Origin: Elusimicrobiota bacterium | GTDB lineage: Bacteria; CG03; SLGR01; JAGXOG01 | DNA length: 64,000 nt | Reading direction: 5' to 3' | NCBI GenBank assembly: GCA_051745145.1 | Contig: JBNJDT010000001.1 | Location: 25,899-89,898 of the forward strand | Shown here: piece by piece, positions 11,753-63,250 of the stretch | Position numbering within the stretch: the stretch's first letter is position 1 | Layout: every line of letters starts with the position of its first letter | Made by a program: the position numbers and the translations under genes | The notes under the pieces: generated by a model | Seen by the model: only the letters and a program-made list of their open reading frames with translations | Databases searched by the model: none | Told to the model about the DNA's origin: nothing

Positions 11753-11829
11753 TGGTGGGCCCACCAGGACTTGAACCTGGGACACCCTGATTATGAGTCA
11801 GGTGCTCTAACCAACTGAGCTACGGGCCC
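11753..11829 (-). tRNA. tRNA-Met (anticodon CAU, elongator-type; could be tRNA-Ile2/lysidine)
   Basis: Minus-strand GGGCCCGUAGCUCAGUUGGUUAGAGCACCUGACUCAUAAUCAGGGUGUCCCAGGUUCAAGUCCUGGUGGGCCCACCA. Cloverleaf with anticodon loop CUCAUAA. The anticodon stem lacks the three G-C pairs of an initiator tRNA. Confidence 0.8.
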
Positions 11830-11883
11830 ATTAATTTTATTTTTTATATTTTTTTTATAGAAATGTCAAATTGAAAACTTTTA

Positions 11884-48609: not shown

Positions 48610-49751
48610 TAAAAAAAATTTTAAATAAAATTGTAGTAAGTGCGGCAATAAAATTAGGGGTAGTATCATTTTTTATTATTGCTATAATGCTGTTCTTTTT
48701 AATGAATACCCCTCTCGAGGAAACCCGCAAAGAATTAGACGGACAGCTCATTTCTATAGGTACAAATCTAGTTGAAGCCTACCAGACAGACACAGAAAAT
48801 GCCATTATTAAAAAAGATGATATAAGTCTTAATGAATATATGAGCCAGATAATGGGATTTCCAAGAACACGGTTTGCCATGGTCCTTGATCCGGACGGTT
48901 ATGTAAAAGCCCACAACGATATGCAAGAATGGGGAGAACAGTACAAAGACAGTGAAACTTTAGAAGTTTTGAGGGATCGGGAGTTTACAATATACAGGCG
49001 CCAGCATGACGGTGAACCTCTTTTTGAACTTGTGCAGCCCTTAAGAAGTTCCTACGGTGAATTTATCGGGGTTCTCCGGGTTGGGTTTTCGGCAGAAGGA
49101 ATAACCAGTACTATGGAAAGCTTAAAAGCCCAAACCCGTAAAATGATTGTCCTCTGGGCCCTTATAATAGCCTTTGTAGTGGGACTTGCATCCAAACAGA
49201 TAACTCTCTACGGCGCACCTAAAATAAAATATATTCTAAATACTATAATGGCCGAACGCTGGGATGAAGAGGAGAAAAAACAGTCTAAAATTATTGATAA
49301 AAAAGATGAGTGGGGCGCCCTGGCCAGACACTGTGATTACATGGCTAAACGTATAGAAGATGAGAAGGAAGTATATAAAGATAAAGCAGAGCAAACTTCT
49401 AAAAACCTGAAAAGTTTTATCCACAATATTGGAAAAGCTTTTAAATCCGGCGCGGTATTGGCAAATTCTGAGAATAAAGTTGTCTATATCAATGATACGG
49501 CCAGACATATTCTTTCTATAGATTCGGCCAGTGAAGTTCATGGCAATCACATAGCCTCAATCTTTAAATCCCGCAAACTTGTAGAATTATTCCAAAAAAG
49601 TCTAAAAAGCCCCAATCAATTGTTAACCAAAAAATTAGATGACCCGGAAGTCACGGTTTCCTGCGTAGGTATTCATTCTGAAGATGGCGATCTTATAAGT
49701 GTTCTTGTTCTTTTAGAACGAAGAAATGAGCCGCGGCCAGATTCAGCTTAA
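48606..49751 (+). CDS. Two-TM membrane sensor-like protein (periplasmic Cache-like domain plus cytoplasmic PAS-like domain, no kinase or output domain)
   Basis: 381 aa. TM1, a periplasmic region of about 150 aa, TM2 (MIVLWALIIAFVVGL), and a cytoplasmic PAS-like block (VVYINDTARHILSIDSASEVHGNHIASIF). It overlaps the tadV stop by 4 nt. Confidence 0.45.
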   Translation: MIKKILNKIVVSAAIKLGVVSFFIIAIMLFFLMNTPLEETRKELDGQLISIGTNLVEAYQTDTENAIIKKDDISLNEYMSQIMGFPRTRFAMVLDPDGYVKAHNDMQEWGEQYKDSETLEVLRDREFTIYRRQHDGEPLFELVQPLRSSYGEFIGVLRVGFSAEGITSTMESLKAQTRKMIVLWALIIAFVVGLASKQITLYGAPKIKYILNTIMAERWDEEEKKQSKIIDKKDEWGALARHCDYMAKRIEDEKEVYKDKAEQTSKNLKSFIHNIGKAFKSGAVLANSENKVVYINDTARHILSIDSASEVHGNHIASIFKSRKLVELFQKSLKSPNQLLTKKLDDPEVTVSCVGIHSEDGDLISVLVLLERRNEPRPDSA

Positions 49752-49803: not shown

Positions 49804-50991
49804 ATGTCCAATGACCCCTTAAATAAAAATACGCAATCTAATAAAAATTTAACTACTCTGGTACATTTACTGGCTGTAATTGTTATTACCGGTCTACTCT
49901 TTACCACTGCTGATATATATTTACAGTTTACCGACGTTGGGGAATCATTCCACAATAAAATATGGCCACCGGTTATTATAATTGACAGTAATCCCTCTAT
50001 GGCCGATATTAAATTATTAGATGAAAACAATGAAGTTTTGAAATCTGCAATCACTCCTTTACAAATAAGAGATATTCAACCGGGAAATTATAATTTAAAA
50101 TTATCTAAATTAAACTGGGGAGAAACTGCCCGAAAATTTACAGTAAAAAAGACAGATTCCGGTAAAAGACAATTTTCCATACCTGATTCCAAAAAACTGG
50201 ATAAGAATTACATTATCCCGTTTAAAGTAAAATTTTCCATTAAATCCCGTCCCCAAAAAGCTGACATCTTTATAGATGACAAAAAAGTGGGACAGACTCC
50301 CTATTCTGATTTTATAAATGTAGGAACTTACGATATCAGACTTGAAAAAGAAGGTTTTACTACTATCGGGGATCAATCGGCCAGTCTCGGCTCATGTATA
50401 ATAGATATGACCGCACGGCTGGACCAACAGGATCAGATGGATTCCCGTTTCTGGACCATTTCAGAAAAAGAAAATGTTCCCAAGCATCTAATTTTAACAG
50501 GCTTTTTTCGTAAAAATTATAAGATAACTTCCAACCCTTCTAATGCAAAAATTTATGTAAACTCAAAAATACAGGGAAAAACACCGATAAAAGATTTATC
50601 TTTACCGGCCGGCAGATACCATATAAAAATAATTAAAGGCGGCTACAATGAATGGTCCAAAATTGTAGAAGTTACGGGTAACGATACTAATTCTATAACA
50701 GCGAATTTAACTAAAAAAATCGCCAAGCCTAATGTTAATGTTTACAGAGGAAAACCGGGGAGCGGCGTAGCACCTCCTTCCGCAACAGGTTCTGATTCAC
50801 ATGAAGATATTTGGAACTTGGGTAATCAGGAAAATCTCCCCAATAATATTAACGGTCTTATGAATAAAATTCCCAATTTACCGATGCTTCCCAATAATTT
50901 ATCCAATTCAAGTGGCGGCTGCGAACCCTATACCGGTAATCTTAGCGATCTTGGTACTATCGGTCCTATCGGTGGCGGCTGCGGTAAATGA
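49804..50991 (+). CDS. Membrane-anchored protein with three PEGA domains and a Cys-containing C-terminal tail
   Basis: 395 aa. N-terminal TM anchor. PEGA repeats (IKSRPQKADIFIDDKKVGQTPYSDFINVGTYDIRLEKEGF; ITSNPSNAKIYVNSKIQGKTPIKDLSLPAGRYHIKIIKGGY). C-terminal GGCEPYTGN...GGGCGK. Confidence 0.65.
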   Translation: MSNDPLNKNTQSNKNLTTLVHLLAVIVITGLLFTTADIYLQFTDVGESFHNKIWPPVIIIDSNPSMADIKLLDENNEVLKSAITPLQIRDIQPGNYNLKLSKLNWGETARKFTVKKTDSGKRQFSIPDSKKLDKNYIIPFKVKFSIKSRPQKADIFIDDKKVGQTPYSDFINVGTYDIRLEKEGFTTIGDQSASLGSCIIDMTARLDQQDQMDSRFWTISEKENVPKHLILTGFFRKNYKITSNPSNAKIYVNSKIQGKTPIKDLSLPAGRYHIKIIKGGYNEWSKIVEVTGNDTNSITANLTKKIAKPNVNVYRGKPGSGVAPPSATGSDSHEDIWNLGNQENLPNNINGLMNKIPNLPMLPNNLSNSSGGCEPYTGNLSDLGTIGPIGGGCGK

Positions 50992-51069: not shown

Positions 51070-52425
51070 ATGAAAAAAGAAATTAAAATAACAATTCTTT
51101 TCCTCCTTTTTGGAATGATTCTTTCACTTAATTTTGGAAAAGTAGAAGATCCGGATTTATTCTGGCATTTAAAAACAGGAGAAGAAATAGCCGCAGAAGG
51201 TTTCGTCAGCAATGATCCCTTTTCCTGGACTTTCCCGGGAAAGGAATGGCTTAATCACGAGTGGTTAACTCAATTTATTTTTTATACAGCCTCCCCTTCC
51301 GGAAATTTACTTCCCCTTATATTTTTAAAAATTATCTTAATAACAGCTACTTTCGGACTCTTATTTTATTTAATAGCCCAAAAATCCAGCTTTACTACGG
51401 CCACTGTATATACGGGTTTAGGAGCTATGCTTTCTTCAATAGCTTTTACTATACGCCCCTGGATATTTTCCTATTTTTTACTTGTCCTTTTTCTTCTGGC
51501 TCTTGAAAAGAAAAAATTTTATTTTATACCTATTATTTTTTTACTGTGGATAAATTTCCACGGCATATTTATTTTTGCCCTGGGAATTCTTTTTGTAGAA
51601 GCCTTAAATGAAATTATTGTGAAAAAGCGCTACCGGCTTTCAAAAACTTTTGCTGCTTCTATCGGTATAATGCTAATAAATCCAAATGGTCTCAAAGGTT
51701 TACTTCATCCTTTCTCATATCTTTACGGCTCAACTAATATACATCTTAACTATATTATGGAATGGGCCAGTCCGGATTTTAAGGGAATATGGGGGGGGAT
51801 TTTTATCATTTTTATTTTTCTTTCTATTTTTGCCCTTACCTATTCGGAAGAAAAACCAGAATTTAAAAATATGTTTCTTTTTTTTGTTTTCATGGCCTCC
51901 GGCTTACTGGCGATAAGAAATATTCCTTTTTTTGTAATTATTACCGGCATTACCGTTTCAAAATCTTTTGACAGGATCCCCGCCTTCCAAAAACCCTTAA
52001 CAACCTACATCAGTATAGCCATTTTTACTCTCATTACTGTTATTTCTATTGAGGTACAGGTAAAAAAATTTTTTAACGACGGTTATATAAAAGAAAATAC
52101 TTTTCCGAGCAAACCTATAACAGATAAGCTCCAAGCTAACACCGAAAATCTTGTTCACCCCTATGATTGGGGCGGATATTTAATTTATCACAATATCCCG
52201 GTTTTTATAGATGGAAGAGCTGATTTCTATCCGGGTCAGTTTTTGGAAAATTTTTTTCTTTCAACCGAACTGAAAAAAAATCCGGAAAATTTTCTAAAAA
52301 AATACAAAATAAAAAAAATTCTATGGAAAACAGAAACACCCTTCTTTTACTATCTCAACAATTCCTCACTCTGGCAAAAAATTTATTCGGATGAAATATG
52401 TGCCGTATTTAAAAAAAATAAATAA
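51070..52425 (+). CDS. Polytopic GT-C-like membrane glycosyltransferase (PMT/ArnT-like), paralog 1
   Basis: 451 aa with more than 10 TM helices. First periplasmic loop has EDPDLFWHLKTGEEI (acidic DxD/ExD-type motif), then FSWTFPGKEWLNHEWLTQ. It is paralogous to the genes at 56407-57846 and 59373-60899. Confidence 0.45.
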   Translation: MKKEIKITILFLLFGMILSLNFGKVEDPDLFWHLKTGEEIAAEGFVSNDPFSWTFPGKEWLNHEWLTQFIFYTASPSGNLLPLIFLKIILITATFGLLFYLIAQKSSFTTATVYTGLGAMLSSIAFTIRPWIFSYFLLVLFLLALEKKKFYFIPIIFLLWINFHGIFIFALGILFVEALNEIIVKKRYRLSKTFAASIGIMLINPNGLKGLLHPFSYLYGSTNIHLNYIMEWASPDFKGIWGGIFIIFIFLSIFALTYSEEKPEFKNMFLFFVFMASGLLAIRNIPFFVIITGITVSKSFDRIPAFQKPLTTYISIAIFTLITVISIEVQVKKFFNDGYIKENTFPSKPITDKLQANTENLVHPYDWGGYLIYHNIPVFIDGRADFYPGQFLENFFLSTELKKNPENFLKKYKIKKILWKTETPFFYYLNNSSLWQKIYSDEICAVFKKNK

Positions 52426-52498
52426 TTGAAAGCATTCACTTTTTTTTAAAAACTTTATAACTGAATTAACTTTATTATTGCCTTTAGCAGTCCACAAA

Positions 52499-52558
52499 AG
52501 TACTAAAAAAAATAAGTACCTTAAACCGATTGACATAAACTATTAACTATATTATAGT
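52499..52558 (+). promoter_or_regulatory. Flp cassette 1 promoter: inverted repeat AGTACT-N10-AGTACC, then TTGACA, 17-nt spacer, TATAGT
   Basis: Seen directly in the sequence. -35 at 52530-52535 and -10 at 52553-52558. The inverted repeat lies immediately upstream (52499-52520). The SD AAAGGAGGT is 8 nt before the ATG. The same element layout is repeated before the other two cassettes. Confidence 0.6.
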
Positions 52559-52617
52559 TATAGTGAGACTAGGGAGAAAAGAATATATATTTAAATTTAA
52601 AAAAGGAGGTAAAAAAA

Positions 52618-52785
52618 ATGAAACATTTATTATGTGATGAATCAGGTCAGGGAATGACTGAGTACATTTTAATTGTTCTGTTAATTGCTATTGCCGCATT
52701 CGTTATCATGCAGGCATTTGGTAACACAATTTCAGAAGCCTTCAACGACGCTAAGAAAACCGTACAGAACGCAAGACCTGATTAA
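52618..52785 (+). CDS. flp: Flp/Fap family pilin (class III prepilin), copy 1
   Basis: 55 aa, MKHLLCDESGQGMTEYILIVLLIAIAAFVIMQAFGNTISEAFNDAKKTVQNARPD, with the Flp motif G/xxxxEY plus a hydrophobic stretch. Strong SD. The gene is missed by the 60-aa ORF track. Confidence 0.8.
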   Translation: MKHLLCDESGQGMTEYILIVLLIAIAAFVIMQAFGNTISEAFNDAKKTVQNARPD

Positions 52786-52813
52786 TCCCAAAATTAAGAA
52801 GGTAACAAGCATA

Positions 52814-52860
52814 CTTCCGGAGTTTTTTATAAAGCTCCGGAAGTTGCATTTACAATGGTC
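52814..52860 (+). terminator. Rho-independent terminator after flp copy 1
   Basis: CUUCCGGAGUUUUUUAUAAAGCUCCGGAAG hairpin (9-14 bp stem) followed by a U-rich tract. The sequence is conserved after all three cassettes. Confidence 0.6.
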
Positions 52861-53223
52861 AACAAAACCTTAAAATCAAACTCCAGTATCCACTTACCTG
52901 CTGCATACCGTAGCCGCAGGATATCCAGTTAAATCCTTCTCACCAGGATATGCCCTCCTGCTGTAATTATCAAAAGTACCCACTTTGCGGATATTATCAA
53001 CTTAAGATCATAAATCCGTAGTCTCCCTCCTGAAATTGAGAAAGATTGCCCGGTACCGGTTAAACTGCTCTTATCATTGTGAGCGGAGACCAGAATAATA
53101 GTTCTGCTGACAGTAAAGCTCTAATAATTGAAATAATACAGTCAAATTTCTATAACGTTAATTACTTCAAAAATGTAATTATTTAATAAATTATCCGGCC
53201 TATTTTTTCTAATATACCCTAAA

Positions 53224-53283
53224 AGTACTATAAATAATCAGTACCTTAAACCGATTGACATAAAAAGCTAACTGTATTATAAT
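53224..53283 (+). promoter_or_regulatory. Flp cassette 2 promoter: inverted repeat AGTACT-N10-AGTACC, then TTGACA, 17-nt spacer, TATAAT
   Basis: Perfect consensus -35 (53255-53260) and -10 (53278-53283). Conserved upstream inverted repeat at 53224-53245. SD GAGGAGGT. Confidence 0.65.
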
Positions 53284-53339
53284 TATAGTGAATTAAAGGA
53301 AAAGAGAGTGTAAGAGGAATTTAAGAGGAGGTAAAATAT

Positions 53340-53507
53340 ATGAAACATTTATTATGTGATGAATCAGGTCAGGGAATGACAGAATACATTTTAATTGTTC
53401 TGTTAATTGCTATTGCCGCATTCGTTATCATGCAGGCATTTGGTAACACAATTTCAGAAGCCTTCAACGACGCTAAGAAAACCGTACAGAACGCAAGACC
53501 TGATTAA
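53340..53507 (+). CDS. flp: Flp/Fap family pilin, copy 2 (protein identical to copy 1; synonymous nucleotide differences)
   Basis: 55 aa identical to copy 1. For example, GAATGACAGAATAC here versus GAATGACTGAGTAC in copy 1. Confidence 0.8.
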   Translation: MKHLLCDESGQGMTEYILIVLLIAIAAFVIMQAFGNTISEAFNDAKKTVQNARPD

Positions 53508-53535
53508 TCCTACAATCAAGAAGGTAACAAGCATA

Positions 53536-53577
53536 CTTCCGGAGTTTTTTTTAAAAGCTCCGGAAGTTGTGTTTTAT
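53536..53577 (+). terminator. Rho-independent terminator after flp copy 2
   Basis: CUUCCGGAGUUUUUUUUAAAAGCUCCGGAAG, then UUGUGUUUUAU. Confidence 0.6.
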
Positions 53578-53636
53578 ATCATAAATTTTTAAGTAACTAT
53601 TCTACAATTTCCTTCCGGTCTATTTTTAATAACAAA

Positions 53637-53696
53637 AGTACTATATATAATTAGTACCTTAAACCGATTGACATAAAAAGCTAACTGTATTATAAT
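53637..53696 (+). promoter_or_regulatory. Flp cassette 3 promoter: inverted repeat AGTACT-N10-AGTACC, then TTGACA, 17-nt spacer, TATAAT
   Basis: -35 at 53668-53673 and -10 at 53691-53696. Inverted repeat at 53637-53658. SD AAAGGAGGA. Confidence 0.65.
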
Positions 53697-53753
53697 TATA
53701 CTGTATTAAGGAAAAAGAGAATATAAGAGGAAATAATAAAGGAGGAAAAATAT

Positions 53754-53921
53754 ATGAAACATTTATTACGTGACGAATCAGGTCAGGGAATGACTGAGTA
53801 CATTTTAATTGTTCTGTTAATTGCTATCGCTGCATTTGTTATCATGCAGGCATTTGGTAACACCATTTCAGAGGCTTTTAACGACGCTAAACAAACTGTA
53901 GGGAACGCAAGACCTGATTAA
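53754..53921 (+). CDS. flp: Flp/Fap family pilin, copy 3 (variant: C6R, K47Q, Q51G)
   Basis: 55 aa, MKHLLRDESGQGMTEYILIVLLIAIAAFVIMQAFGNTISEAFNDAKQTVGNARPD. Confidence 0.8.
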   Translation: MKHLLRDESGQGMTEYILIVLLIAIAAFVIMQAFGNTISEAFNDAKQTVGNARPD

Positions 53922-53949
53922 TCCTAAAATTAAGAAGGTATAAAGCATA

Positions 53950-53990
53950 CTTCCGGAGTTTTTTTTAAAGCTCCGGAAGTTGTGTTTTTT
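53950..53990 (+). terminator. Rho-independent terminator after flp copy 3
   Basis: CUUCCGGAGUUUUUUUUAAAGCUCCGGAAG, then UUGUGUUUUUUAU. Confidence 0.6.
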
Positions 53991-54001
53991 ATAAGAATTT
54001 A

Positions 54002-55066
54002 ATGAAATTTTCACTCTTTGCTTGGGGGGGGATTCTTATTTTTTTGACTTCCTGTAAGTGCTTCCCTTTATCAAATACCCCCCAAATTCAAAAAAAATAT
54101 CAATATTCAAAAATAGACGGGAATATACCAATTATTTACTCTTCTCAATACGATATAACTTTATCGGGTCTTGAAAAACTCCATCCGTTTGACACTCAAA
54201 AATACAGCAAAAGTAAAAATTATTTAATTAGAAATTCGTCTCTACAGGAAAATCAGTTTTACGTTCCCAGAAAAGCAACCGAAAAAGATATTCTAAAAAT
54301 ACATACCAAGGATTATTTACAGACCCTCAATGATCCTAAAAATATAGCTAAAATTGCTGAGTTGTTTTCTCTGGCTTCACTGCCTATTAGGCAGCTTAAA
54401 GATGGAATACTAAAACCCATGCTATTTGCTACCGGAGGCACTCTACTGGCAACTGAATTATCATTAGATTACGGATGGTCAATTAATTTATCAGGCGGTT
54501 ACCACCATGCAAAAAAGGATCAGGGCAGCGGTTTTTGTTTTTACAATGATATTTCTATTGCAGTAAAAAAATTATTTGAGAAAAATCCTAAAATTATTGT
54601 GTTAATAATTGATTTAGATGTTCATCAGGGAAACGGAATTGCCGATACTGTTGGTAATATTCCCGGAGTATTTATATTCGATATTTATAACAGGGAAATA
54701 TTTCCCAGAGACGAAAAAGCAAAAAAATATATTGATTTTAATTTTCCGGTAAAATCCACCGTTACCGAAAAAGAATATTTAACCATTTTAAAAAAAGAAA
54801 TACCCGAAGCGTTAAAAAGCACAGACCCTGATCTGATAATTTATAATGCCGGTACCGATATATTCGAAAACGATAAAATTGGTAATTTAGATATTTCTTT
54901 TGAAGGCGTAATCAAACGGGACCAGATAGTATTTAATAATGCTCTGGAACAGAAAATCCCCATAACCATGGTCTTATCCGGAGGATACTCTCGGGAAAGC
55001 TACAGACTAATCGGTAAATCAATAGAAAATATATATAATAAGTGGCCTGAAATTTTTAAATATTGA
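54002..55066 (+). CDS. Histone deacetylase (HDAC)/acetoin-utilization AcuC superfamily deacetylase with lipoprotein-type signal peptide
   Basis: 354 aa. N-terminal hydrophobic segment ending LTSC (lipobox-like). HDAC catalytic motifs GGYHHAKKDQGSGFCFYND and IDLDVHQGNG. Confidence 0.7.
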   Translation: MKFSLFAWGGILIFLTSCKCFPLSNTPQIQKKYQYSKIDGNIPIIYSSQYDITLSGLEKLHPFDTQKYSKSKNYLIRNSSLQENQFYVPRKATEKDILKIHTKDYLQTLNDPKNIAKIAELFSLASLPIRQLKDGILKPMLFATGGTLLATELSLDYGWSINLSGGYHHAKKDQGSGFCFYNDISIAVKKLFEKNPKIIVLIIDLDVHQGNGIADTVGNIPGVFIFDIYNREIFPRDEKAKKYIDFNFPVKSTVTEKEYLTILKKEIPEALKSTDPDLIIYNAGTDIFENDKIGNLDISFEGVIKRDQIVFNNALEQKIPITMVLSGGYSRESYRLIGKSIENIYNKWPEIFKY

Positions 55067-55071
55067 AAATT

Positions 55072-56268
55072 TTAACTATTACCGCCTCTGTAAATATAAA
55101 TATGGGAAAGTACAAATATCCCCAATGTACTCAAAACAGGGGGCATAGAACTTAAAAGTATATTAAAAGAAGACGATGAGACTATATTTAAATCAGCCGG
55201 CCATCCCCAAATAACAATACAAATTAAAAAAAATGACCACCTAGGATATTTTTTCTCAAAAGGAATATAACGACTTAATATTATAAGACAGGGAAACAAA
55301 AGAACCTGGTAATTAATCCAGGATAACGGTGAGAGTAAAAGAGAAAGTGAAACAGATTTATTAAATAGATCATCCACAGGACCGGTCCATAACCGCGGAT
55401 AAAATACAATGCCTCCTAAAATAACCGCTAAGGTCCATCCCCATTTAGATATATTTAAGGCATAACTTAAGGATATAATAGAGTAATTGCCAATTTTTCC
55501 GTACCATAGCTGTGAACGAGGTATTATATCAGTTATATAATATAATACTTCCCTGAAACCTATAATATAAAATGAGATTAACAGAAGGCCGACCGTAGCT
55601 ATAGCCGCTTTCAAAAAATTTTTTTTATCCCTGTGCCCTGTCACCGCAAACCAAAGAAATGGAAATAATTTTAAACTCCCAGCTATGCCCCACAAAAAAT
55701 TACCGGTAAAGTTTTTTTTATTGCGCAGTTTATACCATCCCAAAACCCCAAACAATACAATCCACATTTCCATATGATTTCTCTTAAGTAAAAATAGAAA
55801 GGGTGCTGATCCTAAAAATATAATAGAAATAATAACAGATAATTTCTTAGAATACCCCATTTCTCTTGCCGTAAAAGTTAAAAGTCCCAATAATAATAGT
55901 ACAGAAAAAACTGCAAACATTATCCAGGACACTTTATATGGAAAAAGGGACAGGGGGCTTACAAAAATTATTCCGGTTGGCGGGATGGACGGATACAGGT
56001 CATACTCCCAGCCGAGTTCTTCATAAACATCTTTTTTCAAATCCTCATACATAGCTTCACCTGAAAATAATCTTTGGGCGGGAAAATAATAGTTGGGATA
56101 GTCTTCCGGGTCCGTACCATTAAGCGTTTTAGGAAATTCCCGAACAGAATACCCAAAAAAAGTTATAAGGGAAATCAAAGCAATTACAATACCCAGCCAA
56201 AAAGGAAAACTGTTTTTTTTAGCTCTTCCCTTTTCCCTTACATTTTTGTTTACATCACTGGCATTCAT
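55072..56268 (-). CDS. Polytopic membrane protein, putative glycosyltransferase (GT87/DUF2029-like)
   Basis: 398 aa with about 10 TM helices. Loop 1 is acidic (TDPEDYPNYYF...MYEDLKKD). It sits inside the glycosyltransferase island. Confidence 0.35.
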   Translation of the reverse strand: MNASDVNKNVREKGRAKKNSFPFWLGIVIALISLITFFGYSVREFPKTLNGTDPEDYPNYYFPAQRLFSGEAMYEDLKKDVYEELGWEYDLYPSIPPTGIIFVSPLSLFPYKVSWIMFAVFSVLLLLGLLTFTAREMGYSKKLSVIISIIFLGSAPFLFLLKRNHMEMWIVLFGVLGWYKLRNKKNFTGNFLWGIAGSLKLFPFLWFAVTGHRDKKNFLKAAIATVGLLLISFYIIGFREVLYYITDIIPRSQLWYGKIGNYSIISLSYALNISKWGWTLAVILGGIVFYPRLWTGPVDDLFNKSVSLSLLLSPLSWINYQVLLFPCLIILSRYIPFEKKYPRWSFFLICIVIWGWPADLNIVSSSSFNILLSSMPPVLSTLGIFVLSHIYIYRGGNS

Positions 56269-56406
56269 ATAAATAAATTAAAATACCTCTAATATTCGTC
56301 TATTCTACTAAATAAGAAGTTATAACCGGATTATACATATAACTCTTTTTAATTATAAAAATAAAAATATATATTAAAATTTTACATACCCCGCAATTTT
56401 ACTTTT

Positions 56407-57846
56407 TTACTTTTTTTCTAAAAGAATGAATAAACCTTTTTTATTCTTTGCCGTAATTTCCCAGTTATTTTCAATTAATTTTTTATAAAGCGGGGAATTA
56501 TAAGTAGGCACTATTTCCTTTATTATACTGTAATCAAATTCTCTTTTATCAGGATTTATTAATAAAACTGCGTCAGTGTTATATTTATCAAGAATTTTTT
56601 TCCAATTATTTTCGGCTGACAAAACTGTTAAATATTCGTGAAATAAATTTAAAGAATAAATCTCAAGTCGACTATCTATAAAAACTTTTTTTCCAGTAAT
56701 AAAATGCACCCAGCCGCCCAGTTCATAATAAGTAAAAACATTGAAATTCTGTTTTGTTTTCAATCTTCTGTTTATTTTAGGAGATAAAGGATATTTACCG
56801 GCAAGTGCATATTTTTTAGAATTATCCCCTACTTTAAAAAATACAATAATAAATAACATTCCCAATATTATAAAATTTATTATCGTTTTTCTGTTTTTTT
56901 TAACCTGATGCATCTTAATTTTAATTTTTTTAAAAACCGGGATTTCAAAATTTATAAATATTAAAAAACTGCTGATTAAAACTAAGTGATAATGCCTTAT
57001 TGCAGAATAGAAAAGTAACATAGATGCCATAAAGAGTAAAGTTTTCGGTAAAGTCTCCTCTTTTTTATATTTCAAATATCTATAAAATATTAACCCTGCC
57101 ATTATGAGTATTGAAAGCCTCATAAAAACCGGCGGCGTAGCCCACTCCCTTAAATATAAATTATGTCTATTCTGTAGAATAAACTGAAAAGGCACCCCAA
57201 GCAGCTTTATTCCATATGGATTAATTAATAGAAGTATTATAGTAAAAAATAATAGGCTAAAATGGGTCCGTAATTTTTTATACTGTTTAATTCTGATATA
57301 TTCAATTGCAAAAATAGCCCAGATAATAATACCCAGTACCCAGCCGCCGTGCAGATTAAACCATCCCCACATTATTATAGGAAAAGCATAATTGAATTTA
57401 TTTTCACTTTGAAAGAGCCAAAAAACAAATATAAAAAGAAAATTAGTTAGGATATAAGGGCGGGTATACCAAAACTGGTTAAAACCTAACAGTATCACTG
57501 CAAATAATATTACACCGTATAATTGATATAAGTTTTTTTTATTTATCAGGGAGAATAATATTATCCAGATCCCCGCCATGACCAAACCCCGAAATAAATA
57601 GAGTCCCTGAAAACCACTAACTTTGTAAATTAGATAAAATAAAGTTGAACCCAGCCATGAATGAGCAATCCATTTTTTTTTGTAATTTGTATAAGTAAAT
57701 GTATCTTCCTTGGGCACTTCACCCTCAGAATATACCTGTTTTCCGATAGATAGATGCCACCAGATGTCAGTTTCATTATTAAATTGTTTGACACTTAAAA
57801 AAGAGATACACACTAAAATAAAGAGTAGCGGGGGTATTTTATTCAT
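56407..57846 (-). CDS. Polytopic GT-C-like membrane glycosyltransferase (PMT/ArnT-like), paralog 2
   Basis: 479 aa. ETDIWWHLSIGKQV...TFTYTNYKKKWIAHSWLGS, the same motif architecture as paralogs 1 and 3. Confidence 0.45.
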   Translation of the reverse strand: MNKIPPLLFILVCISFLSVKQFNNETDIWWHLSIGKQVYSEGEVPKEDTFTYTNYKKKWIAHSWLGSTLFYLIYKVSGFQGLYLFRGLVMAGIWIILFSLINKKNLYQLYGVILFAVILLGFNQFWYTRPYILTNFLFIFVFWLFQSENKFNYAFPIIMWGWFNLHGGWVLGIIIWAIFAIEYIRIKQYKKLRTHFSLLFFTIILLLINPYGIKLLGVPFQFILQNRHNLYLREWATPPVFMRLSILIMAGLIFYRYLKYKKEETLPKTLLFMASMLLFYSAIRHYHLVLISSFLIFINFEIPVFKKIKIKMHQVKKNRKTIINFIILGMLFIIVFFKVGDNSKKYALAGKYPLSPKINRRLKTKQNFNVFTYYELGGWVHFITGKKVFIDSRLEIYSLNLFHEYLTVLSAENNWKKILDKYNTDAVLLINPDKREFDYSIIKEIVPTYNSPLYKKLIENNWEITAKNKKGLFILLEKK

Positions 57847-57862
57847 AAATACAAACGTATTT

Positions 57863-58573
57863 TTATTTTTCCCCTACCACAAGCATTGAATTGCCAAAAT
57901 TAAAATTTAAAATATTATCTACAATTTTAAGTACCGGTAAAAACTTATCAAAGAATATAATCTGAAAAGTAGATATTTTTTGCTTCTTCCTGATTTTACT
58001 GTTTAAAAACCATCCAAAAGCTCCCACTCTGTTAAAATACTGAAAGTGTTTTATCTTAAATCCGGCTTTGTTTACTTTATTAATTAAATCTTTTTTTTCA
58101 TACCTTCTGCAATGCCCCACATTCTCGTCAATGCTTCCAAATAACAGCTCATGGCTGGGTACAATAATTATTATATTGCCTTTCTGTTCCGTTAATTTAT
58201 ACATATTTGCCAGGGCTCGCTCATCCTGTTTAATATGTTCTAAAATATTTACGCAGAGTATAGATTTAAATTGAGTATTTATTTTAGCTAAAATTTGCGG
58301 GTTACTTATATCGCAATTTATTAGTTCAATATCAGGAAAATCAAGTTTCATATATTTTAGATATTTTTCATTAATATCAACTGCAGTAACTTCCCGGTTG
58401 CGATTTAAATACTGTGTTAAATTACCTATGCCGCAACCAATTTCAAGTACATTTGTATTGCTGAGAAATGGTTCAATTTTTTTAAAAAGCCAGTTATTAT
58501 AATTACTGCACAATGCCATTAATCTTAAAGTTATATAACTTATCTTTTCTTTTTTTCCTATTTTTTTATTCAT
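57863..58573 (-). CDS. Class I SAM-dependent methyltransferase
   Basis: 236 aa. Motif I VLEIGCGIGNLTQYL and motif II-like VDINEKY. Confidence 0.7.
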   Translation of the reverse strand: MNKKIGKKEKISYITLRLMALCSNYNNWLFKKIEPFLSNTNVLEIGCGIGNLTQYLNRNREVTAVDINEKYLKYMKLDFPDIELINCDISNPQILAKINTQFKSILCVNILEHIKQDERALANMYKLTEQKGNIIIIVPSHELLFGSIDENVGHCRRYEKKDLINKVNKAGFKIKHFQYFNRVGAFGWFLNSKIRKKQKISTFQIIFFDKFLPVLKIVDNILNFNFGNSMLVVGEK

Positions 58574-58629
58574 TTATTAACCTTATTAAATATTCAATCT
58601 CATTTCTATTTTCAGCAACAAGATTTACC

Positions 58630-59355
58630 CTAACAATTATAGTGTCCTAATAAATTTTTAATTTTTATTTTTATAAGTTCATATCCTATAAAAACAGAAT
58701 CTTTAAACGGTGATAATTTTGTTTCAAAGCTATTTTTCCAGACAATGGGGACCTCTTTAATTTTATAACCTTTTTTTTGCGAAATAAATAAAATTTCCGG
58801 GTCAAAACCAAAACCGCAAACAGTCTGACAGGAAAAAACATCTTTAGCTACTTCCCGTTTAAAAAGTTTAAACCCACACTGAGAATCTCTTATACCGGGT
58901 AATAACATTATTCTAACCAGCAGCCCAAAAAGTTTTCCCATTTTATCCCGGAAAAAATTTTGAGGAACTATTTTTTCCGATCCTGCAAGGCCCCGGGAAC
59001 CTATTGCAATATCATATTCTTTTTGAGTTATCTCCTTCTCTAATTTTTCATATTCTTCTATTGGAGTAGAAAGGTCAGCATCAGAAAATAAGATTAATTT
59101 CCCCCTGGCTTTAAGCATCCCCCACTTAACGGCGGCTCCTTTTCCACGATTCTTGAAAAAAGAATGAATTTTTAACGGTATATTAGTATTAAAATTTTTA
59201 ACTTTATTTACCGTTTGATCTTTTGACCCGTCGTCCACAATTATTATCTCAGTTTTAATACCCCGCCGGTCAATATAATCACTGATTCTATTTAAAGCTT
59301 TTATAATTCGGTTTTCTTCATTATAACACGGGATAACTATTGACAGTTCAGTCAT
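58630..59355 (-). CDS. GT2 family glycosyltransferase, polyprenyl-phosphate sugar synthase type (Dpm1/ArnC/GtrB-like)
   Basis: 241 aa. SIVIPCYNEENRI...IIVDDGSKDQT...SRGLAG, the typical dolichyl/undecaprenyl-phosphate hexose synthase fold. Confidence 0.75.
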   Translation of the reverse strand: MTELSIVIPCYNEENRIIKALNRISDYIDRRGIKTEIIIVDDGSKDQTVNKVKNFNTNIPLKIHSFFKNRGKGAAVKWGMLKARGKLILFSDADLSTPIEEYEKLEKEITQKEYDIAIGSRGLAGSEKIVPQNFFRDKMGKLFGLLVRIMLLPGIRDSQCGFKLFKREVAKDVFSCQTVCGFGFDPEILFISQKKGYKIKEVPIVWKNSFETKLSPFKDSVFIGYELIKIKIKNLLGHYNC

Positions 59356-59372
59356 TTATTTTAACCTCTCCT

Positions 59373-60899
59373 TTAATTCTTCCTCTTAAATAGAATTCCA
59401 GCCCGGCCGGATAATATTTTTTCCCAGTTTTTAGCATCTCGTAAAATTTCTATAATATACTCATTTTTATTTCTATTTAATATAACTGTTTTTACATCAT
59501 ATTTATCAAGGACTTCTTCCCAGCCTGCTTTCCCCTCATAAACTATCCAGTAATCACTCCATATATCTTTTGGAACTATATGCATTCTCGTACCAAAAAA
59601 AGGACTGTAATCGGGCCAGAGCCGCCATATGATATAACTACCCCAGTCACTGTAATTAAAAATATTTCCCGGCAAAGTATGTTTCTCCATATAATCGGCA
59701 ACTTCCACCGGCTGCTGACGGGGATCTATAAAATATTTCATTCTGCTACCGGGTAGTTTTTTTCTGAAGTAAGGAGAAAATATTATTACAGAACCTAACA
59801 TACAAAGCAAAATTATTCCATTAATATAACTATTACCCTTATCTTCTCCGGCTTTTAAAAAATATAATTTACTGTCTGAGGTAAGAGAATCAATAATTGA
59901 TTGGAAATGGCGGGCAAATACAGCGGAAAATATAATCCCCCACCAGATAACCATCCTCAGGTGCAGTAAACTCTGATAAGTAAAAAATAAAAATAAAATT
60001 ATCTCTTCAATTTTTATCTTTGTATTACTTTTCAATACTGTGCCAAACCCGGCGAGCAGGGAAATATAAAAGATAAGCCCGGTTGGGGTATTAATAGTCA
60101 AAGGAAGCCATTCTGCGGACCGATATGACGCCTTATCCATAGTGTTGAAAACACTTTCCCATATCCGTATTCCGTAGGGATTTAAAAGAGTAGCTAAAGA
60201 TACCGCAGCTAACAAAATAAAAAGAGACTGGATTTTTTTATCAAATATAATTTTTGTTAAAGTTTTTTTATTTAAATATATTTTTATGCTTTTTGAAACC
60301 AAAAATATCCCGATTAAGCCAATACCCGCCGGGAAACTATTGTGTAAATTTGCCCATAAAACCATAAGGAGAAAAAATATCCCGACCTGAGATTTTTTGA
60401 TTTTTTGACCGGCATACAAAAATGAAAAATAATAAATGAAAATCGGCAGTACAAACAACTGGGGCCGCAAATTCCAGTTAGTTAACCCGGTAAGTATGTA
60501 CATAAACGAGAACAAAAAGCAGACTTTATAATTAATATTCACACGAAGCAGTAGTTTTATAAATATATATAACGAAAGTAACAGAATGAAAGCATTTAAC
60601 AGGATAAGAATTTCCTTACCCCCGGCAGAGTGAAACACTGCCAGTACAACTTGAGAAAGCCAGCCGTGGTTAATATATTCCATGCCCGATAAAGTATGTG
60701 TGAATATATCTTGAGATAATACAGCCCCGTTTTCAATCATCACTTCCCCCATGCGAATATAATAACCTAAATCCTCCGGGGCTAAATAAGAACTAAAAAC
60801 ACCGATTAGCACAATAAAAAATGGGGTTGTATAGTAAAGTTTTTTAAGAGAGAAAAAAGATAAAAACTTTTCTTTTCTCATAATTACAATATATCCCAA
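59373..60899 (-). CDS. Polytopic GT-C-like membrane glycosyltransferase (PMT/ArnT-like), paralog 3
   Basis: 508 aa. APEDLGYYIRMGEVM...FTHTLSGMEYINHGWLSQ motif set. More than 10 TM helices. Confidence 0.45.
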   Translation of the reverse strand: MGYIVIMRKEKFLSFFSLKKLYYTTPFFIVLIGVFSSYLAPEDLGYYIRMGEVMIENGAVLSQDIFTHTLSGMEYINHGWLSQVVLAVFHSAGGKEILILLNAFILLLSLYIFIKLLLRVNINYKVCFLFSFMYILTGLTNWNLRPQLFVLPIFIYYFSFLYAGQKIKKSQVGIFFLLMVLWANLHNSFPAGIGLIGIFLVSKSIKIYLNKKTLTKIIFDKKIQSLFILLAAVSLATLLNPYGIRIWESVFNTMDKASYRSAEWLPLTINTPTGLIFYISLLAGFGTVLKSNTKIKIEEIILFLFFTYQSLLHLRMVIWWGIIFSAVFARHFQSIIDSLTSDSKLYFLKAGEDKGNSYINGIILLCMLGSVIIFSPYFRKKLPGSRMKYFIDPRQQPVEVADYMEKHTLPGNIFNYSDWGSYIIWRLWPDYSPFFGTRMHIVPKDIWSDYWIVYEGKAGWEEVLDKYDVKTVILNRNKNEYIIEILRDAKNWEKILSGRAGILFKRKN

Positions 60900-61021: not shown

Positions 61022-61702
61022 TTAGGGGTGTTCATTTGTATCGGTCCAGTAAATAGGCATAAAAGTATCTATGGGCAACATATGTATAGCCATCCTGTTC
61101 ATCCAGGTTGAATTAGCTACGTAGTTTTCAGCGCCTAATTCATTCTCTCCGTCGCCCATCCACTCTTCCTCCCATTCCGGACCGCTGACCCCCATCCATC
61201 CCATACCTTCAGTAAAAAAATCCCAGACCTTATATTTATAAGTCATCCGGCAGTGGGCATAATTAGGTCCTAATGGCGACACATCCATATCAAGCATAGC
61301 AAGCATAGGTTCCATTCTAATCTGTAAATCCACCAGCAGTTGCATTATAGTAAACCCCCCAAAAACCATACCATTCCCCTCACCGGTTTCCACCTCCACT
61401 ATTTCTACCTGTTCGTTATCTATATATTTGCCCAACCACTCTTGAGCTAAATCATTGGCTTTTGACTCCATTGAACTCGCATCCGCATCGTCATCATATA
61501 CCGGTTCCCAGGCTGCCGCCCTGGAAATATTCTCAATCGTCACATCAGTTATAAACCACTGTCCGAACCACCATATTCCCATAAGTACAAGAAAATATAG
61601 AGGTGAGACCATCAATAACTCTAACATAGACTGACCTTTTTGATTTTTTATTATTTTTCTAAAAAAATTCATTAATCCGGCTCCACTAATTTTGCTCTCC
61701 AT
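61022..61702 (-). CDS. TadE/TadF-like pseudopilin
   Basis: 226 aa. The N-terminal KGQSMLELLMVSPLYFLVLMGIWWFG matches the TadE-like motif (G-Q-S-x-V/L-E-F/L then hydrophobic helix). Confidence 0.55.
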   Translation of the reverse strand: MESKISGAGLMNFFRKIIKNQKGQSMLELLMVSPLYFLVLMGIWWFGQWFITDVTIENISRAAAWEPVYDDDADASSMESKANDLAQEWLGKYIDNEQVEIVEVETGEGNGMVFGGFTIMQLLVDLQIRMEPMLAMLDMDVSPLGPNYAHCRMTYKYKVWDFFTEGMGWMGVSGPEWEEEWMGDGENELGAENYVANSTWMNRMAIHMLPIDTFMPIYWTDTNEHP

Positions 61703-62688
61703 CCCCCGCCTTTGGCCGCATCATAGTACGAATATATAGGATCCGAGGTACTGCAGCTGTCATTGGGCGTTGTAGTAGTAAACATGGGCCCGTCGCCTTT
61801 ATCGCCTACTTCGGTATTATATACTACCGCCCTGGACTCTGAAGTTACCCATCCAACATTGTCTTCACCGAATATATTTCCAAAAAATTCCGTATTTTTA
61901 CTAACTTCCCAGGTCTGTGACAAACTGTCTTTAAAAGCCTCTTCATCTTCTATATAAGCCCAACTGTCTAAATTGTCCGGGACAATTTCTTTTCCAATAG
62001 CCGGCCAATACTCGCAGCACTGACAGCTCGGCGGACTGCCGCAGGGCTCGCACATTACCTTGGTGGGATAAATCTTTATATCAAGTTCTTCCCGGGACAA
62101 ATTTAAACCATCCCATTCTGTTGCCTGAATATATACATCTCCGACAGGGAACCTTGACATTATAAAAGGCATAATTCCGCTGAACTGGTCTTCTTCAACT
62201 GATCTTAAAGTTCTCAGGGCAGCCCTCCGGGCCAACGCCTGGCCGTACCCCCTCATGGGGTCATCAGTTTCAGCATCCATTAAACTATCTATCATGGGGG
62301 TTATCGTATCGACGGCATCTTTTATATTTTCAGCTCTGGTATCGTTAGTATCCTTACAGCTGCATCCACAAATCTGACCGTCAAATGGCCATACAAATTT
62401 AGGAGAAAAATAAGAATCCAGTGAAAGTTTGACCGCAAGCTGACCGCTCAAGGCCCCTATTAAATTAAGAACTCTGGCCCGGGCCACTGCCCCGGTTAGA
62501 GCAGCGTTATCCGCTGCATTACCAACCTGAATTCTATTTCTCACTAACATCCCCACGTTTATCATGGTATACCAGAATAATACCAGCGAGAATATAGAAA
62601 AAGCACCGATTATTAACATCTGACCCCGACAATCCCGTTTAAGATCTTTCAGTTTACTTACAAATTTTTCATTTATTTTTCTAAGCAT
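61672..62688 (-). CDS. TadG-like Flp pilus assembly protein
   Basis: 338 aa. N-terminal RGQMLIIGAFSIFSLVLFW...VGMLVRNRIQVGNAADNAALTGAV, the TadE/G-like Tad domain. Cys-rich central region. Confidence 0.55.
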   Translation of the reverse strand: MLRKINEKFVSKLKDLKRDCRGQMLIIGAFSIFSLVLFWYTMINVGMLVRNRIQVGNAADNAALTGAVARARVLNLIGALSGQLAVKLSLDSYFSPKFVWPFDGQICGCSCKDTNDTRAENIKDAVDTITPMIDSLMDAETDDPMRGYGQALARRAALRTLRSVEEDQFSGIMPFIMSRFPVGDVYIQATEWDGLNLSREELDIKIYPTKVMCEPCGSPPSCQCCEYWPAIGKEIVPDNLDSWAYIEDEEAFKDSLSQTWEVSKNTEFFGNIFGEDNVGWVTSESRAVVYNTEVGDKGDGPMFTTTTPNDSCSTSDPIYSYYDAAKGGGWRAKLVEPD

Positions 62689-62707: not shown

Positions 62708-63250
62708 TTAATACGGAGTATCGGCATCGTATTCATCACCGCCATCCCATGTCTGGGGCATTTCCGCTATAGCGCTCTGCTGGATGGTTCCTAATGGATT
62801 ATTAAACATTACATCATCCATACCCCCGGTTACCATACTGGGACCTGAAAAAGGCATTGATAATTTATTGGGATGGGGGAAAAACGGTAGTTGTTTCCAT
62901 AAATAGTTCTGGCCCATTTCTACTTCCACCTGGTCGCTGTTATCATCCACCTGTTCAACAGAGCCCATCATGGGCAATATACCTCCCATACCCGGATGCT
63001 TTGCGAACATATTTTTAATATCGCTTCCAAAACCAAATGTATAGCCGTTATAGTCGTCAAGCACCTTCACCTGATTTGCTCTGGCTCCCCGATGCGCTGC
63101 AAGAATGGTAAGCAGCTTCCCGGTAACAAGCAACCCTATCTGCAAAGTCCCAAGAATTAAACTTATCATAAGCATAGTTGAAAATATAGTTTCAACCATT
63201 GCCTGACCGCTGTTTTTCAGTTTTTTAACTTTTTTATCTATCACGGCCAT
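62708..63250 (-). CDS. TadE-like pseudopilin
   Basis: 180 aa. GQAMVETIFSTMLMISLILGTLQIGLLV TadE motif. Confidence 0.6.
   Translation of the reverse strand: MAVIDKKVKKLKNSGQAMVETIFSTMLMISLILGTLQIGLLVTGKLLTILAAHRGARANQVKVLDDYNGYTFGFGSDIKNMFAKHPGMGGILPMMGSVEQVDDNSDQVEVEMGQNYLWKQLPFFPHPNKLSMPFSGPSMVTGGMDDVMFNNPLGTIQQSAIAEMPQTWDGGDEYDADTPY

Follow-up and report, generated by a model that had tools for sequence, protein, structure and literature searches.

Pili of the Tad/Flp type (type IVc) are widespread adhesion and colonisation organelles. The Flp1 pilin of A. actinomycetemcomitans has been reported to be glycosylated for some 25 years, with no enzyme named (PMC6182317), and RcpC has been implicated in this modification only tentatively (PMC12307814). 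No paper connecting Tad pili with a glycosyltransferase (GT) of the GT-C type came up in our search of the literature. Here we describe a glycosylation island (positions 51070–60899) that surrounds flp pilin genes in a 64,000-nucleotide stretch of DNA, hereafter the window, from a metagenome-assembled genome (MAG) of an Elusimicrobiota bacterium (105.6-kb contig; locus tags ACQEQC_00355 to _00400). The island encodes three paralogous polytopic proteins of 451, 479 and 508 amino acids (aa) with a predicted GT-C fold, an unrelated GT-C enzyme of family GT87 (398 aa), a soluble family 2 glycosyltransferase (GT2), a methyltransferase and a deacetylase of the histone deacetylase (HDAC) family. We propose, with a probability of roughly 0.5, that this is a lipid-carrier system for periplasmic glycosylation that serves the Tad pilus, probably by acting on Flp pilins. 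The three paralogues are members of a large GT-C family that has no Pfam or NCBIfam model, and in this family the long-suspected sugar decoration of Tad pili has its first concrete candidate enzymes.

A comparable arrangement is known from group IV Pseudomonas aeruginosa, where the GT-C enzyme TfpW is encoded beside pilA and transfers D-arabinofuranose onto the type IVa pilin (bioRxiv 10.1101/2020.04.19.049825). There, as here, a polytopic GT-C gene adjoins a major pilin gene and the protein carries a conserved acidic motif; the C-terminal TPR domain of TfpW is also present on some relatives of the new family. In the TfpW system a polyprenyl-monophosphate sugar is provided by separate genes and the pilin is modified in the periplasm, and the same principle is proposed for the island. 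The two differ in the pilus concerned (type IVa versus Tad/Flp), in the C-terminal domain (TPR versus a small alpha/beta domain in the window proteins) and in the supply of the donor (the DprE1/E2 arabinose route versus a DPM1-like GT2), and the likeness is drawn from the description of TfpW rather than from its sequence.

The GtrA/B/C, ArnC/ArnE-F/ArnT and GT136 systems also combine a GT2 that synthesises a polyprenyl-phosphate (Pren-P) sugar with an extracytoplasmic GT-C (PMC11127046), and the window GT2 matches the structures of both GtrB and ArnC. A reading of the letters and open reading frames (ORFs) alone, made before this analysis and called here the sequence-only reading, had compared the island to Gtr-type systems; the comparison fails in one respect, as the island has no GtrA-type flippase gene, nor one of the SMR or MATE type. 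The Arn pathway includes a deacylase step carried out by ArnD, for which the HDAC-like enzyme may be a counterpart. Unlike the Gtr, Arn and GT136 systems, the island has four GT-Cs and not one; the known targets of those systems are O-antigen or lipid A, not pili, and the new family is not among their GT-Cs. A third related scheme is actinobacterial mannosylation by Ppm1 (GT2), PMT (GT39) and PimE-type GT87 enzymes, in which a soluble or small GT2 makes polyprenyl-P-mannose that GT-Cs, including GT87, use outside the membrane. The window shares with it a true GT87 and a GT2 without a transmembrane segment. In contrast to that scheme, no GT39/PMT is found in the island by Pfam, the new family standing in its place, and the genes lie in a pilus locus of a diderm Elusimicrobiota.

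The sequence-only reading had counted four GT-C-like paralogues. As judged by BLASTP, the 451-, 479- and 508-aa proteins are indeed mutually paralogous over nearly their full length at 22–27% identity (E of 3e-25 for the 451-aa against the 479-aa protein, and 6e-18 and 2e-19 for the 508-aa protein against the two others), but the 398-aa protein is an unrelated GT87, so that the count becomes three plus one. The GT87 model PF09594 is matched by this protein only (68.4 bits versus a cut-off of 25); the three paralogues show no BLASTP similarity to it, and their hhalign comparison with 56 GT87 sequences gave an E of 0.11 over four columns. Of the families put forward for the membrane proteins (PMT/GT39, ArnT/GT83, GT87 and YfhO), none fits the three paralogues by Pfam or NCBIfam. 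More generally, they have no match in Pfam-A or NCBIfam at E ≤ 0.1, and 37 members of their family give nothing relevant in Pfam at E ≤ 10; the Pfam model of DPY19 likewise matches neither the window proteins nor the 37 members at these thresholds. Profiles built from the three or the 37 sequences retrieved only chance matches to kinases, at E > 0.2, among PDB sequences. The family is nevertheless large: when 1.84 billion cluster representatives (50% identity) were searched with its profile, 40,824 clusters matched at E ≤ 1e-3 and 16,906 at E ≤ 1e-30, the source annotations of its members being "hypothetical protein". Close relatives of the 479- and 508-aa paralogues were not confirmed in two metagenome scans, and a look-up of assemblies by the exact sequence of the 451-aa protein gave no record.

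Structures of two paralogues were predicted with AlphaFold2 and compared with the PDB by Foldseek. The model of the 451-aa protein, based on an alignment of 37 sequences, had a pLDDT of 91.4 and a pTM of 0.90, and its top 22 matches were all GT-C enzymes (DPY19 at 1.5e-6; yeast and human STT3 with a TMq of up to 0.66; PglB, AglB, ALG12 and ArnT). The 508-aa protein, the most divergent paralogue, was modelled independently (pLDDT of 86.8); its top 21 matches were again all GT-C, with DPY19 (3.2e-8) and STT3/AglB making up the top 15, followed by AftA, AftB and Pmt. Foldseek probabilities for the top GT-C matches of the two models were 0.94–1.00, all but one of them 1.00, and transporters appeared only at E > 0.1 with TM-scores below 0.2. 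Since all significant matches are glycosyltransferases, the predicted structures bear out the earlier view of these membrane proteins as GT-C-fold enzymes, and a classification of the paralogues as transporters or O-antigen polymerases is ruled out by the same results.

The helices of the model and the distribution of K/R charges, with K/R-rich loops 147–149, 181–192 and 300–309 placed in the cytoplasm, define 11 transmembrane helices in an N-in/C-out orientation and a 58-residue loop after the first helix. GT-C enzymes are described as having 7–13 transmembrane helices and an extracytoplasmic loop or domain after the first one (PMC11127046), and the paralogues agree with this superfamily in helix number and first loop, in the fold of the predicted structures and in the acidic residues of loop 1. 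An alignment of 93 members of the family, drawn from eight phyla, shows that D29, W65, R129, W160, N162, H164, W232, G368 and R383 (numbered as in the 451-aa protein) are invariant and that D27, W32, H33, D49, E231, R283, Y365, G369, D381 and D385 are conserved in at least 94%; D49 is found in 98% and D27 in 94% of the sequences, and each of the three window paralogues has both D29 and D49. It had been expected that the acidic motif of loop 1 would face the periplasm. In the predicted topology the invariant polar residues, the loop-1 Asp included, all lie at periplasmic loops or helix ends: the conserved sites are the 58-residue loop and the FTIRP, WxNxH, NPxG...EW and IRN motifs, and the rest are in a C-terminal domain of about 120 residues. 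We therefore take D27/D29, D49, H63, R129, N162, H164, E231, R283 and the C-terminal YDWGGY...DGRxD domain as candidate periplasmic active-site residues. The 451-aa protein carries the full family consensus. The 479-aa paralogue keeps the invariants of the membrane core (D, D, H, W, R, W, N, H, N, P, E, W, R) and has a diverged C-terminal motif; the 508-aa paralogue also keeps the membrane-core invariants, and is diverged at D27/W32/H33 and in the C-terminal motif. Thus, judging from the models, the three paralogues have the fold and motifs of the GT-C superfamily and yet fail every family model with which they were compared (GT39, GT83, GT87, GT66, DPY19 and YfhO).

The solved structures nearest to the models are of two kinds. 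DPY19 (GT98) gave the best Foldseek E-value with both. It uses a lipid-monophosphate-sugar donor (the matched structure 7zli is a complex with Dol25-P-Man) and glycosylates protein by C-mannosylation of Trp. However, DPY19 is a eukaryotic enzyme of the endoplasmic reticulum whose matched chains have 654–661 residues, the window proteins have no match to its Pfam model, and the Flp C-terminus has no WxxW motif. The oligosaccharyltransferases STT3/PglB/AglB (GT66), of which AglB serves in the N-glycosylation of archaeal type IV pilins, gave the highest TM-scores with both models (0.62–0.66 for the 451-aa and 0.56–0.64 for the 508-aa protein), and the soluble C-terminal domain of the 451-aa model resembles the globular domain of AglB-S2 (3vu0, TMt of 0.47). 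About 28 residues after its last transmembrane helix the family carries YDWGGY...FIDGRAD, at the place where oligosaccharyltransferases carry WWDYG...DG; the counterparts of YDWGGY are YELGGW in the 479-aa and SDWGSY in the 508-aa paralogue. A comparison of the family with PglB by hhalign (the PglB query having been checked against PDB 5ogl and 3aag) was not significant, with an E of 0.063 for the WWDYGY...VDGGKH region, 0.087 for the region of the catalytic Asp in EL1 and a probability below 1%. The differences from GT66 are considerable: there is no Pfam STT3 match and no significant profile similarity, the PglB/STT3/AglB chains have 640–870 aa as opposed to about 450–500 aa and 11 transmembrane helices here, the GT66 pathway uses a PP-oligosaccharide whereas the partner here is a monophosphate-sugar synthase, and the window Flp pilins have no N-x-S/T sequon. 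The Tad system is reportedly derived from archaea. One can speculate that the new family is a miniaturised and very remote branch of STT3/AglB/PglB, dedicated to Flp glycosylation as a Tad counterpart of archaeal pilin glycosylation by AglB, with YDWGGY...DGRxD as a degenerate WWDYG...DG re-tooled for a monophosphate-sugar donor; we consider this idea doubtful.

The link to Tad pili was followed across genomes. A scan of one genome per GTDB species yielded at least 577 loci with family members, and the best 80 of these, from 80 species, were studied together with their 10-kb flanks by jackhmmer searches seeded with Tad and GT proteins and by a search for the Flp motif. Tad core genes lie within 10 kb of the family member in 35 of the 80 loci (25/29 in Acidobacteriota, 2/2 in Elusimicrobia, 6/35 in Chloroflexota, 2/6 in Bacillota and 0/6 in Actinomycetota). 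At an assumed background of 2% the probability of 35 or more is 8e-38, a figure that treats the loci of Terriglobia as independent, which they are not. The Tad-linked members are spread over at least six separate clades of a neighbour-joining tree, and counting clades is the fairer measure: at least six of about 12 at a 5% background corresponds to P of about 1e-5, where both the 5% and the 12 are assumed. Linkage of these GT-Cs to Tad/Flp loci recurs in at least six clades and at least five phyla.

Gene order in the linked loci is informative. In Terriglobia it is near constant, GT87-(unk298)-GT87-GT-C-flp-rcpC-secretin-tadZ-cpaF-tadB-tadC-DUF192, and in most of the 25 loci the GT-C gene lies 0–380 bp upstream of flp on the same strand. 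In two Chloroflexota loci (L041 and L033) the GT-C and flp genes are divergent and 80 bp apart; in L041 Pfam confirms Flp, RcpC/SAF and T2SSE. Pelotomaculum propionicicum, a cultured species (L082), has tadG-rcpC-tadZ-cpaF-tadB-tadC...DUF192-GT-C-GT-C...GT2-GT87, where the GT2 bears a GtrA/DPMS transmembrane domain (PF04138, 4.8e-24). In an Omnitrophota MAG (L093) a fusion of a family GT-C with a TPR domain heads an rcpC-secretin-tadZ/cpaF-DUF192 locus; genes of the Tad machine also adjoin the GT-C in L004, where a homologue of the sCache-PAS sensor of the window is next to tadC (BLASTP, 1e-25). An 83-aa ORF that follows the Omnitrophota fusion gene was considered as an Flp and rejected. The fusion is not isolated, as relatives with a C-terminal TPR domain (about 660–790 aa) include L093 1199–3469, P0398, P0400–P0402 and P0404.

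The other glycosyltransferases of the island also recur. In 18 of the 80 species a GT2 gene is found no more than 1.2 kb from the family member, DPMS/GtrB/ArnC-like GT2 genes are next to family members in 18–24 of them, and GT87 genes accompany the family in 30 loci. Since the GT2-methyltransferase-GT-C order of the window is found in at least eight species of Chloroflexota (Methyltransf_23, about 1e-31), it constitutes a recurrent cassette, and a reusable module. A close relative (L089) has kept the order PEGA-flp-flp-HDAC / GT87-GT-C (508 aa)-tadE-tadG-tadE-minor flp at 43–69% protein identity, including PEGA (46%, upstream of flp), HDAC (55%), GT87 (59%) and the 508-aa GT-C (61%, in the same place by tadE). 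The cassette with the 479-aa GT-C is absent from this locus, and the orthologue of the 451-aa protein is elsewhere, beside a GT2. At that place in the close relative (L001, 10001–14141) the orthologue (61% identity) is followed by the GT2 and by a 577-aa protein with a weak match to the sulfatase superfamily (E of 0.007), which may be an LtaS/EptA-like transferase.

The GT2 of the window had been taken for a polyprenyl-phosphate-sugar synthase, and its nearest relatives are enzymes of this kind. Its best PDB matches are the Dol-P-Man synthase of P. furiosus (5mlz, 3.7e-20), GtrB (5ekp, 2.3e-15) and ArnC (1.7e-12), and it has a DxD-type motif (...LFSDADL...). With 241 aa it has no transmembrane segment, as is also the case for enzymes of the DPM1/Ppm1 type. 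The NCBIfam matches (PgfS, 69 bits; ArnC, 62; AglJ, 60; PpgS, 48.5; Dol-P-hexose transferase) are all far under the cut-offs of 325–529 bits; the protein is therefore a candidate that resembles Pren-P-sugar synthases, and no sugar specificity can be assigned from such matches. It is from the genomic association with this GT2 that use of a lipid-phosphate-sugar donor by the paralogues would follow.

Taken together, the data suggest the following scheme. At the cytoplasmic face the soluble GT2 would charge polyprenyl phosphate with a sugar taken from a nucleotide sugar, and the S-adenosylmethionine (SAM)-dependent methyltransferase may add a methyl group to the sugar or to the lipid-linked donor; this step is placed in the cytoplasm because SAM is only available there and because the enzyme has no signal peptide, so that a nucleotide sugar or the lipid-linked donor would be its likely substrate. 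Some flippase would then move the lipid-linked sugar across the inner membrane. At the periplasmic face the three family GT-Cs and the GT87 would use it as donor, the several GT-Cs adding or extending different sugars, and an N-acetylated sugar, once outside, may lose its acetyl group through the action of the exported HDAC11-like lipoprotein. The most likely acceptors would be the Flp pilins, or perhaps the Tad pseudopilins, which are membrane-anchored before assembly with the C-terminal 20 or so residues of Flp (GNTISEAFNDAKKTVQNARPD, which contains T, S and T) in the periplasm, the compartment of the predicted GT-C active site. Four considerations lead us to favour Flp as acceptor: the repeated occurrence of GT-C and flp genes side by side at short distance, the presence of prepilin peptidase and pseudopilin genes in the same place, the fact that the nearest solved folds (DPY19, STT3/AglB) belong to enzymes with peptide acceptors, and the TPR domains that family relatives share with the pilin-modifying TfpW. 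Should the association prove functional, type IVc pili would have a candidate pilin glycosyltransferase, and the enzymes, with D29, D49, H63, R129, N162, H164, E231 and R283 as candidate catalytic residues, would form a new GT-C family of the CAZy type. There would also be a simple test system, as a pilin of about 45 residues is well suited to intact-mass mass spectrometry. In other type IV pili glycans affect adhesion, aggregation, susceptibility to phages and immune recognition.

Several observations weigh against this scheme. Tad genes are not found near 45 of the 80 family members, among them all six of Actinomycetota and most of Chloroflexota, which means that pilus specificity is not a property of the entire family, and all but one of the related loci come from MAGs. 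The window itself, searched by jackhmmer with Tad seeds, contains no CpaF/TadA ATPase, TadB/TadC platform, RcpC or secretin gene; these may be located beyond position 64000 on the contig. Between 51070 and 60899, where genes are 6–138 bp apart, there is no free ORF for a GtrA, SMR or MATE flippase. The C-termini of Flp pilins from the linked loci share no Ser, Thr or Asn position across phyla, and the cryo-EM map of the Caulobacter Tad pilus has no glycan density (PMC10710030). Some family loci look like envelope-glycan factories: in a Promineofilaceae species of Chloroflexota (L091, 6830–17310) three GT87 and two family GT-C genes alternate (GT87-GT-C-GT87-GT-C-GT87) next to rmlABCD with no Tad genes, which looks like an extracytoplasmic assembly line with multiple GT-Cs, and in L092 two members lie beside MurJ-like flippase genes. 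To our knowledge, the GT87 enzymes characterised to date, such as PimE, act on lipoglycans. It is therefore possible, though on balance rather unlikely, that the GT-C/GT87/GT2 set makes or decorates an envelope glycoconjugate other than pilin, such as a lipoglycan, an exopolysaccharide adhesin or another surface protein, for instance the cadherin-like protein with 12 repeats encoded nearby (38762–44062), and that adjacency to Tad genes reflects co-regulation or co-inheritance. The number of GT-Cs per locus (three plus one here, three to five in Terriglobia), typical of stepwise polymer assembly, would also fit such a role. What speaks for the pilus instead is that the GT-C gene adjoins flp itself, on the same strand in most of the 25 Terriglobia species and at 80 bp in Chloroflexota, that this linkage recurs in at least six clades and five phyla, that the closest solved folds are those of peptide-acceptor enzymes, and that the cadherin-like protein is not kept in related loci. 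The TPR-fused relatives point in the same direction, since TPR domains are found in TfpW and also in TMTC, protein-modifying GT-Cs.

The adjacency to Tad genes might also be devoid of functional meaning, being synteny inherited in a few lineages or the result of hitch-hiking on a mobile "widespread colonisation island". In agreement with this, a single class with one gene order, Terriglobia, accounts for 25 of the 35 linked loci, these 25 not being independent, and the paralogues are rearranged in the close relative, where the 451-aa orthologue has a different location and the GT2-methyltransferase-GT-C cassette is missing. We find this explanation improbable, because the linkage is present in Elusimicrobia, Acidobacteriota (two clades), Chloroflexota (two clades), Bacillota and Omnitrophota with different orders and orientations; repeated independent re-association is hard to explain without selection, and the clade count alone gives the low probability quoted above. 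Finally, the paralogues could be non-enzymatic structural or transport parts of the Tad machine, transporters or O-antigen-polymerase-like proteins that share a GT-C-like scaffold. Their activity is a prediction from sequence and modelled structure, no curated GT family matches them, and the consensus is partly lost (W32/H33 in the 508-aa and the C-terminal motif in the 479- and 508-aa proteins). Even so, the positions of GT-C active sites, on the periplasmic side, are where the invariant acidic, basic and His residues gather, the significant fold matches are without exception glycosyltransferases, transporters being confined to the insignificant ones, and the family is repeatedly paired with a GT2 that resembles Pren-P-sugar synthases. 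A non-enzymatic role is thus very improbable.

The features of the island and its flanks are listed in Table 1. All ORFs of the sequence-only reading were found where it had placed them. Its assignment of the island to a Tad locus also stands: Pfam detects the A24 prepilin peptidase and the TadE/TadG pseudopilins, which, with Flp prepilins carrying a G/XXXXEY motif, mark the locus as Tad/Flp (type IVc). The plus-strand genes for a PhoU-div protein, DUF192, the prepilin peptidase, sCache-PAS, PEGA and the 451-aa GT-C follow each other with gaps of −4 to 78 bp, so that the GT-C gene is the end of a tight string that includes the prepilin peptidase. On the minus strand the order is minor flp-like, tadE, tadG, tadE, 508-aa GT-C, GT2, methyltransferase, 479-aa GT-C and GT87, with gaps of 16–138 bp, and a terminator search within the window found no convincing terminator in this string. 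The start of the 508-aa gene is set by NCBI at the ATG at 60881 (502 aa).

Table 1. Features of the glycosylation island and of the flanking Tad genes (positions in the window)
Feature	Position	Strand	Evidence and remarks
DUF192 (COG1430) protein	47698–48060	+	Pfam PF02643, 8.5e-11
TadV-type A24 prepilin peptidase	48079–48609	+	Pfam Peptidase_A24, 4e-18; 18 bp after DUF192, 4-bp overlap with next gene
sCache-PAS membrane sensor	48606–49751	+	Pfam sCache_3_2, 1.2e-9, and PAS_9
PEGA-domain protein	49804–50991	+	Pfam PEGA, 1.3e-34, three repeats
GT-C paralogue 1, 451 aa, canonical member of the unnamed family	51070–52425	+	78 bp after PEGA gene, 193 bp before flp1
flp1 cassette	promoter 52530–52558, gene 52618–52785, hairpin ~52813–52844	+	sigma-70-like promoter, 11/12 positions
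flp2 cassette	53255–53567; gene 53340–53507, terminator 53535–53567	+	promoter 12/12; protein identical to flp1
flp3 cassette	53668–53980; gene 53754–53921, terminator 53949–53980	+	promoter 12/12; C6R, K47Q and Q50G relative to flp1
HDAC11-like (class IV) zinc deacetylase	54002–55066	+	Pfam Hist_deacetyl PF00850, 3.7e-56; predicted lipoprotein signal (LTSC)
GT87-family GT-C glycosyltransferase, 398 aa	55072–56268	-	Pfam PF09594, 1e-18; last gene of minus-strand cluster
GT-C paralogue 2, 479 aa, divergent member	56407–57846	-	BLASTP to 451-aa protein, 3e-25
Class I SAM-dependent methyltransferase	57863–58573	-	Pfam Methyltransf_25/23/11, 6e-13 to 5e-12
Soluble GT2, 241 aa, candidate polyprenyl-phosphate-sugar synthase	58630–59355	-	Pfam PF00535, 9e-29
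GT-C paralogue 3, 508 aa	59373–60899	-	122 bp downstream of tadE-like gene
TadE-like pseudopilin	61022–61702	-	Pfam TadE, 4.6e-8
TadG-like pseudopilin	61672–62688	-	Pfam Tad, 2.3e-5
TadE-like pseudopilin	62708–63250	-	Pfam TadE, 5.2e-5
Minor Flp-like prepilin, head of pseudopilin/GT-C string	63241–63453	-	translation includes ...EEEAQGMTEYILVVSLIAL...

The three flp genes encode 55-aa prepilins with a G/QGMTEY processing motif; the flp1 product begins with MKHLLCDESG/QGMTEYILIV and matches Pfam Flp_Fap at 1e-5, under the gathering score. As can be seen from Table 1, each gene has its own near-perfect sigma-70-type promoter; strong terminators follow flp2 and flp3, and a similar hairpin follows flp1. 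The three cassettes (52496–53987) are a tandem triplication of a promoter-gene-terminator unit, with a 275-nucleotide repeat of 86–88% identity. The spacer between flp1 and flp2 has 554 bp versus 246 bp between flp2 and flp3, and therefore something was inserted or retained after flp1. The minor Flp-like gene is homologous to flp1 and to a 68-aa gene of L089 (3e-25), in which it has been kept; its product has Ala and not Gly before QGMTEY (...EEEA/QGMTEY...) and a longer, Pro-rich C-terminus.

The best PDB match of the HDAC-like protein is 9gz5 (1.2e-46), and the names of its homologues include "histone deacetylase 11". Translated from the ATG at 54002, it has the N-terminus MKFSLFAWGGILIFLTSC with a lipobox (ILIFLTSC); the NCBI start, a TTG at 54044 (340 aa), removes the signal peptide and lipobox. 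Signal peptides or lipoboxes occur at the N-terminus of many of its homologues, in several phyla (e.g., ...LFFSCSC and ...VTACAC), and in L089 a hydrophobic extension precedes the called start of the orthologue; the protein is therefore likely an exported lipoprotein, as had been supposed; the signal-bearing homologues suggest an exported subfamily of class IV HDACs. HDAC11s of clade A are reported to show no peptide deacylase activity, and non-peptidic substrates have been suggested for them (PMC13325672). Tailoring by deacetylation, proposed earlier as part of the system, does not generalise: the enzyme is conserved next to flp in one close relative only (L089), it occurs in none of the 80 wider loci, and an Omnitrophota homologue is not near Tad genes. 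We therefore rejected it as a general component and regard it as lineage-specific.

Some further genes of these loci deserve mention. A DUF192 gene is present at the edge of the Tad locus not only in the window but also in nearly every Terriglobia locus (for example L006, 16898–17281), in Pelotomaculum (L082, 8033–8395) and in Omnitrophota (L093, 9495–9836), and looks like an unrecognised accessory gene of Tad systems. The unk298 protein of about 20 Terriglobia loci (about 298 aa; L006, 7108–8004) is a conserved polytopic protein encoded between the GT87 genes upstream of GT-C and flp; it has no match in Pfam or among PDB sequences and may be a small GT-C-like enzyme or the missing flippase. 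In L004 a HepT/Pol-beta (MNT) toxin-antitoxin pair (11431–12245) is inserted between the GT-C and pseudopilin genes.

Just upstream of the Tad island, the gene of the cadherin-like protein (1766 aa; 12 beta-sandwich repeats, Pfam 2e-184) overlaps the start of a gene for a 324-aa protein without a Pfam match, the pair spanning 38762–45033. The two may be a surface adhesin and its partner. The giant protein was considered as a conserved partner of the island and rejected, as it has no counterpart in L004. Between this pair and the PhoU-div, DUF192 and tadV genes lies a gene (45042–46910) for a 622-aa protein composed of a coiled-coil N-terminus, a PAS domain and a MoxR/STAND-like P-loop ATPase.

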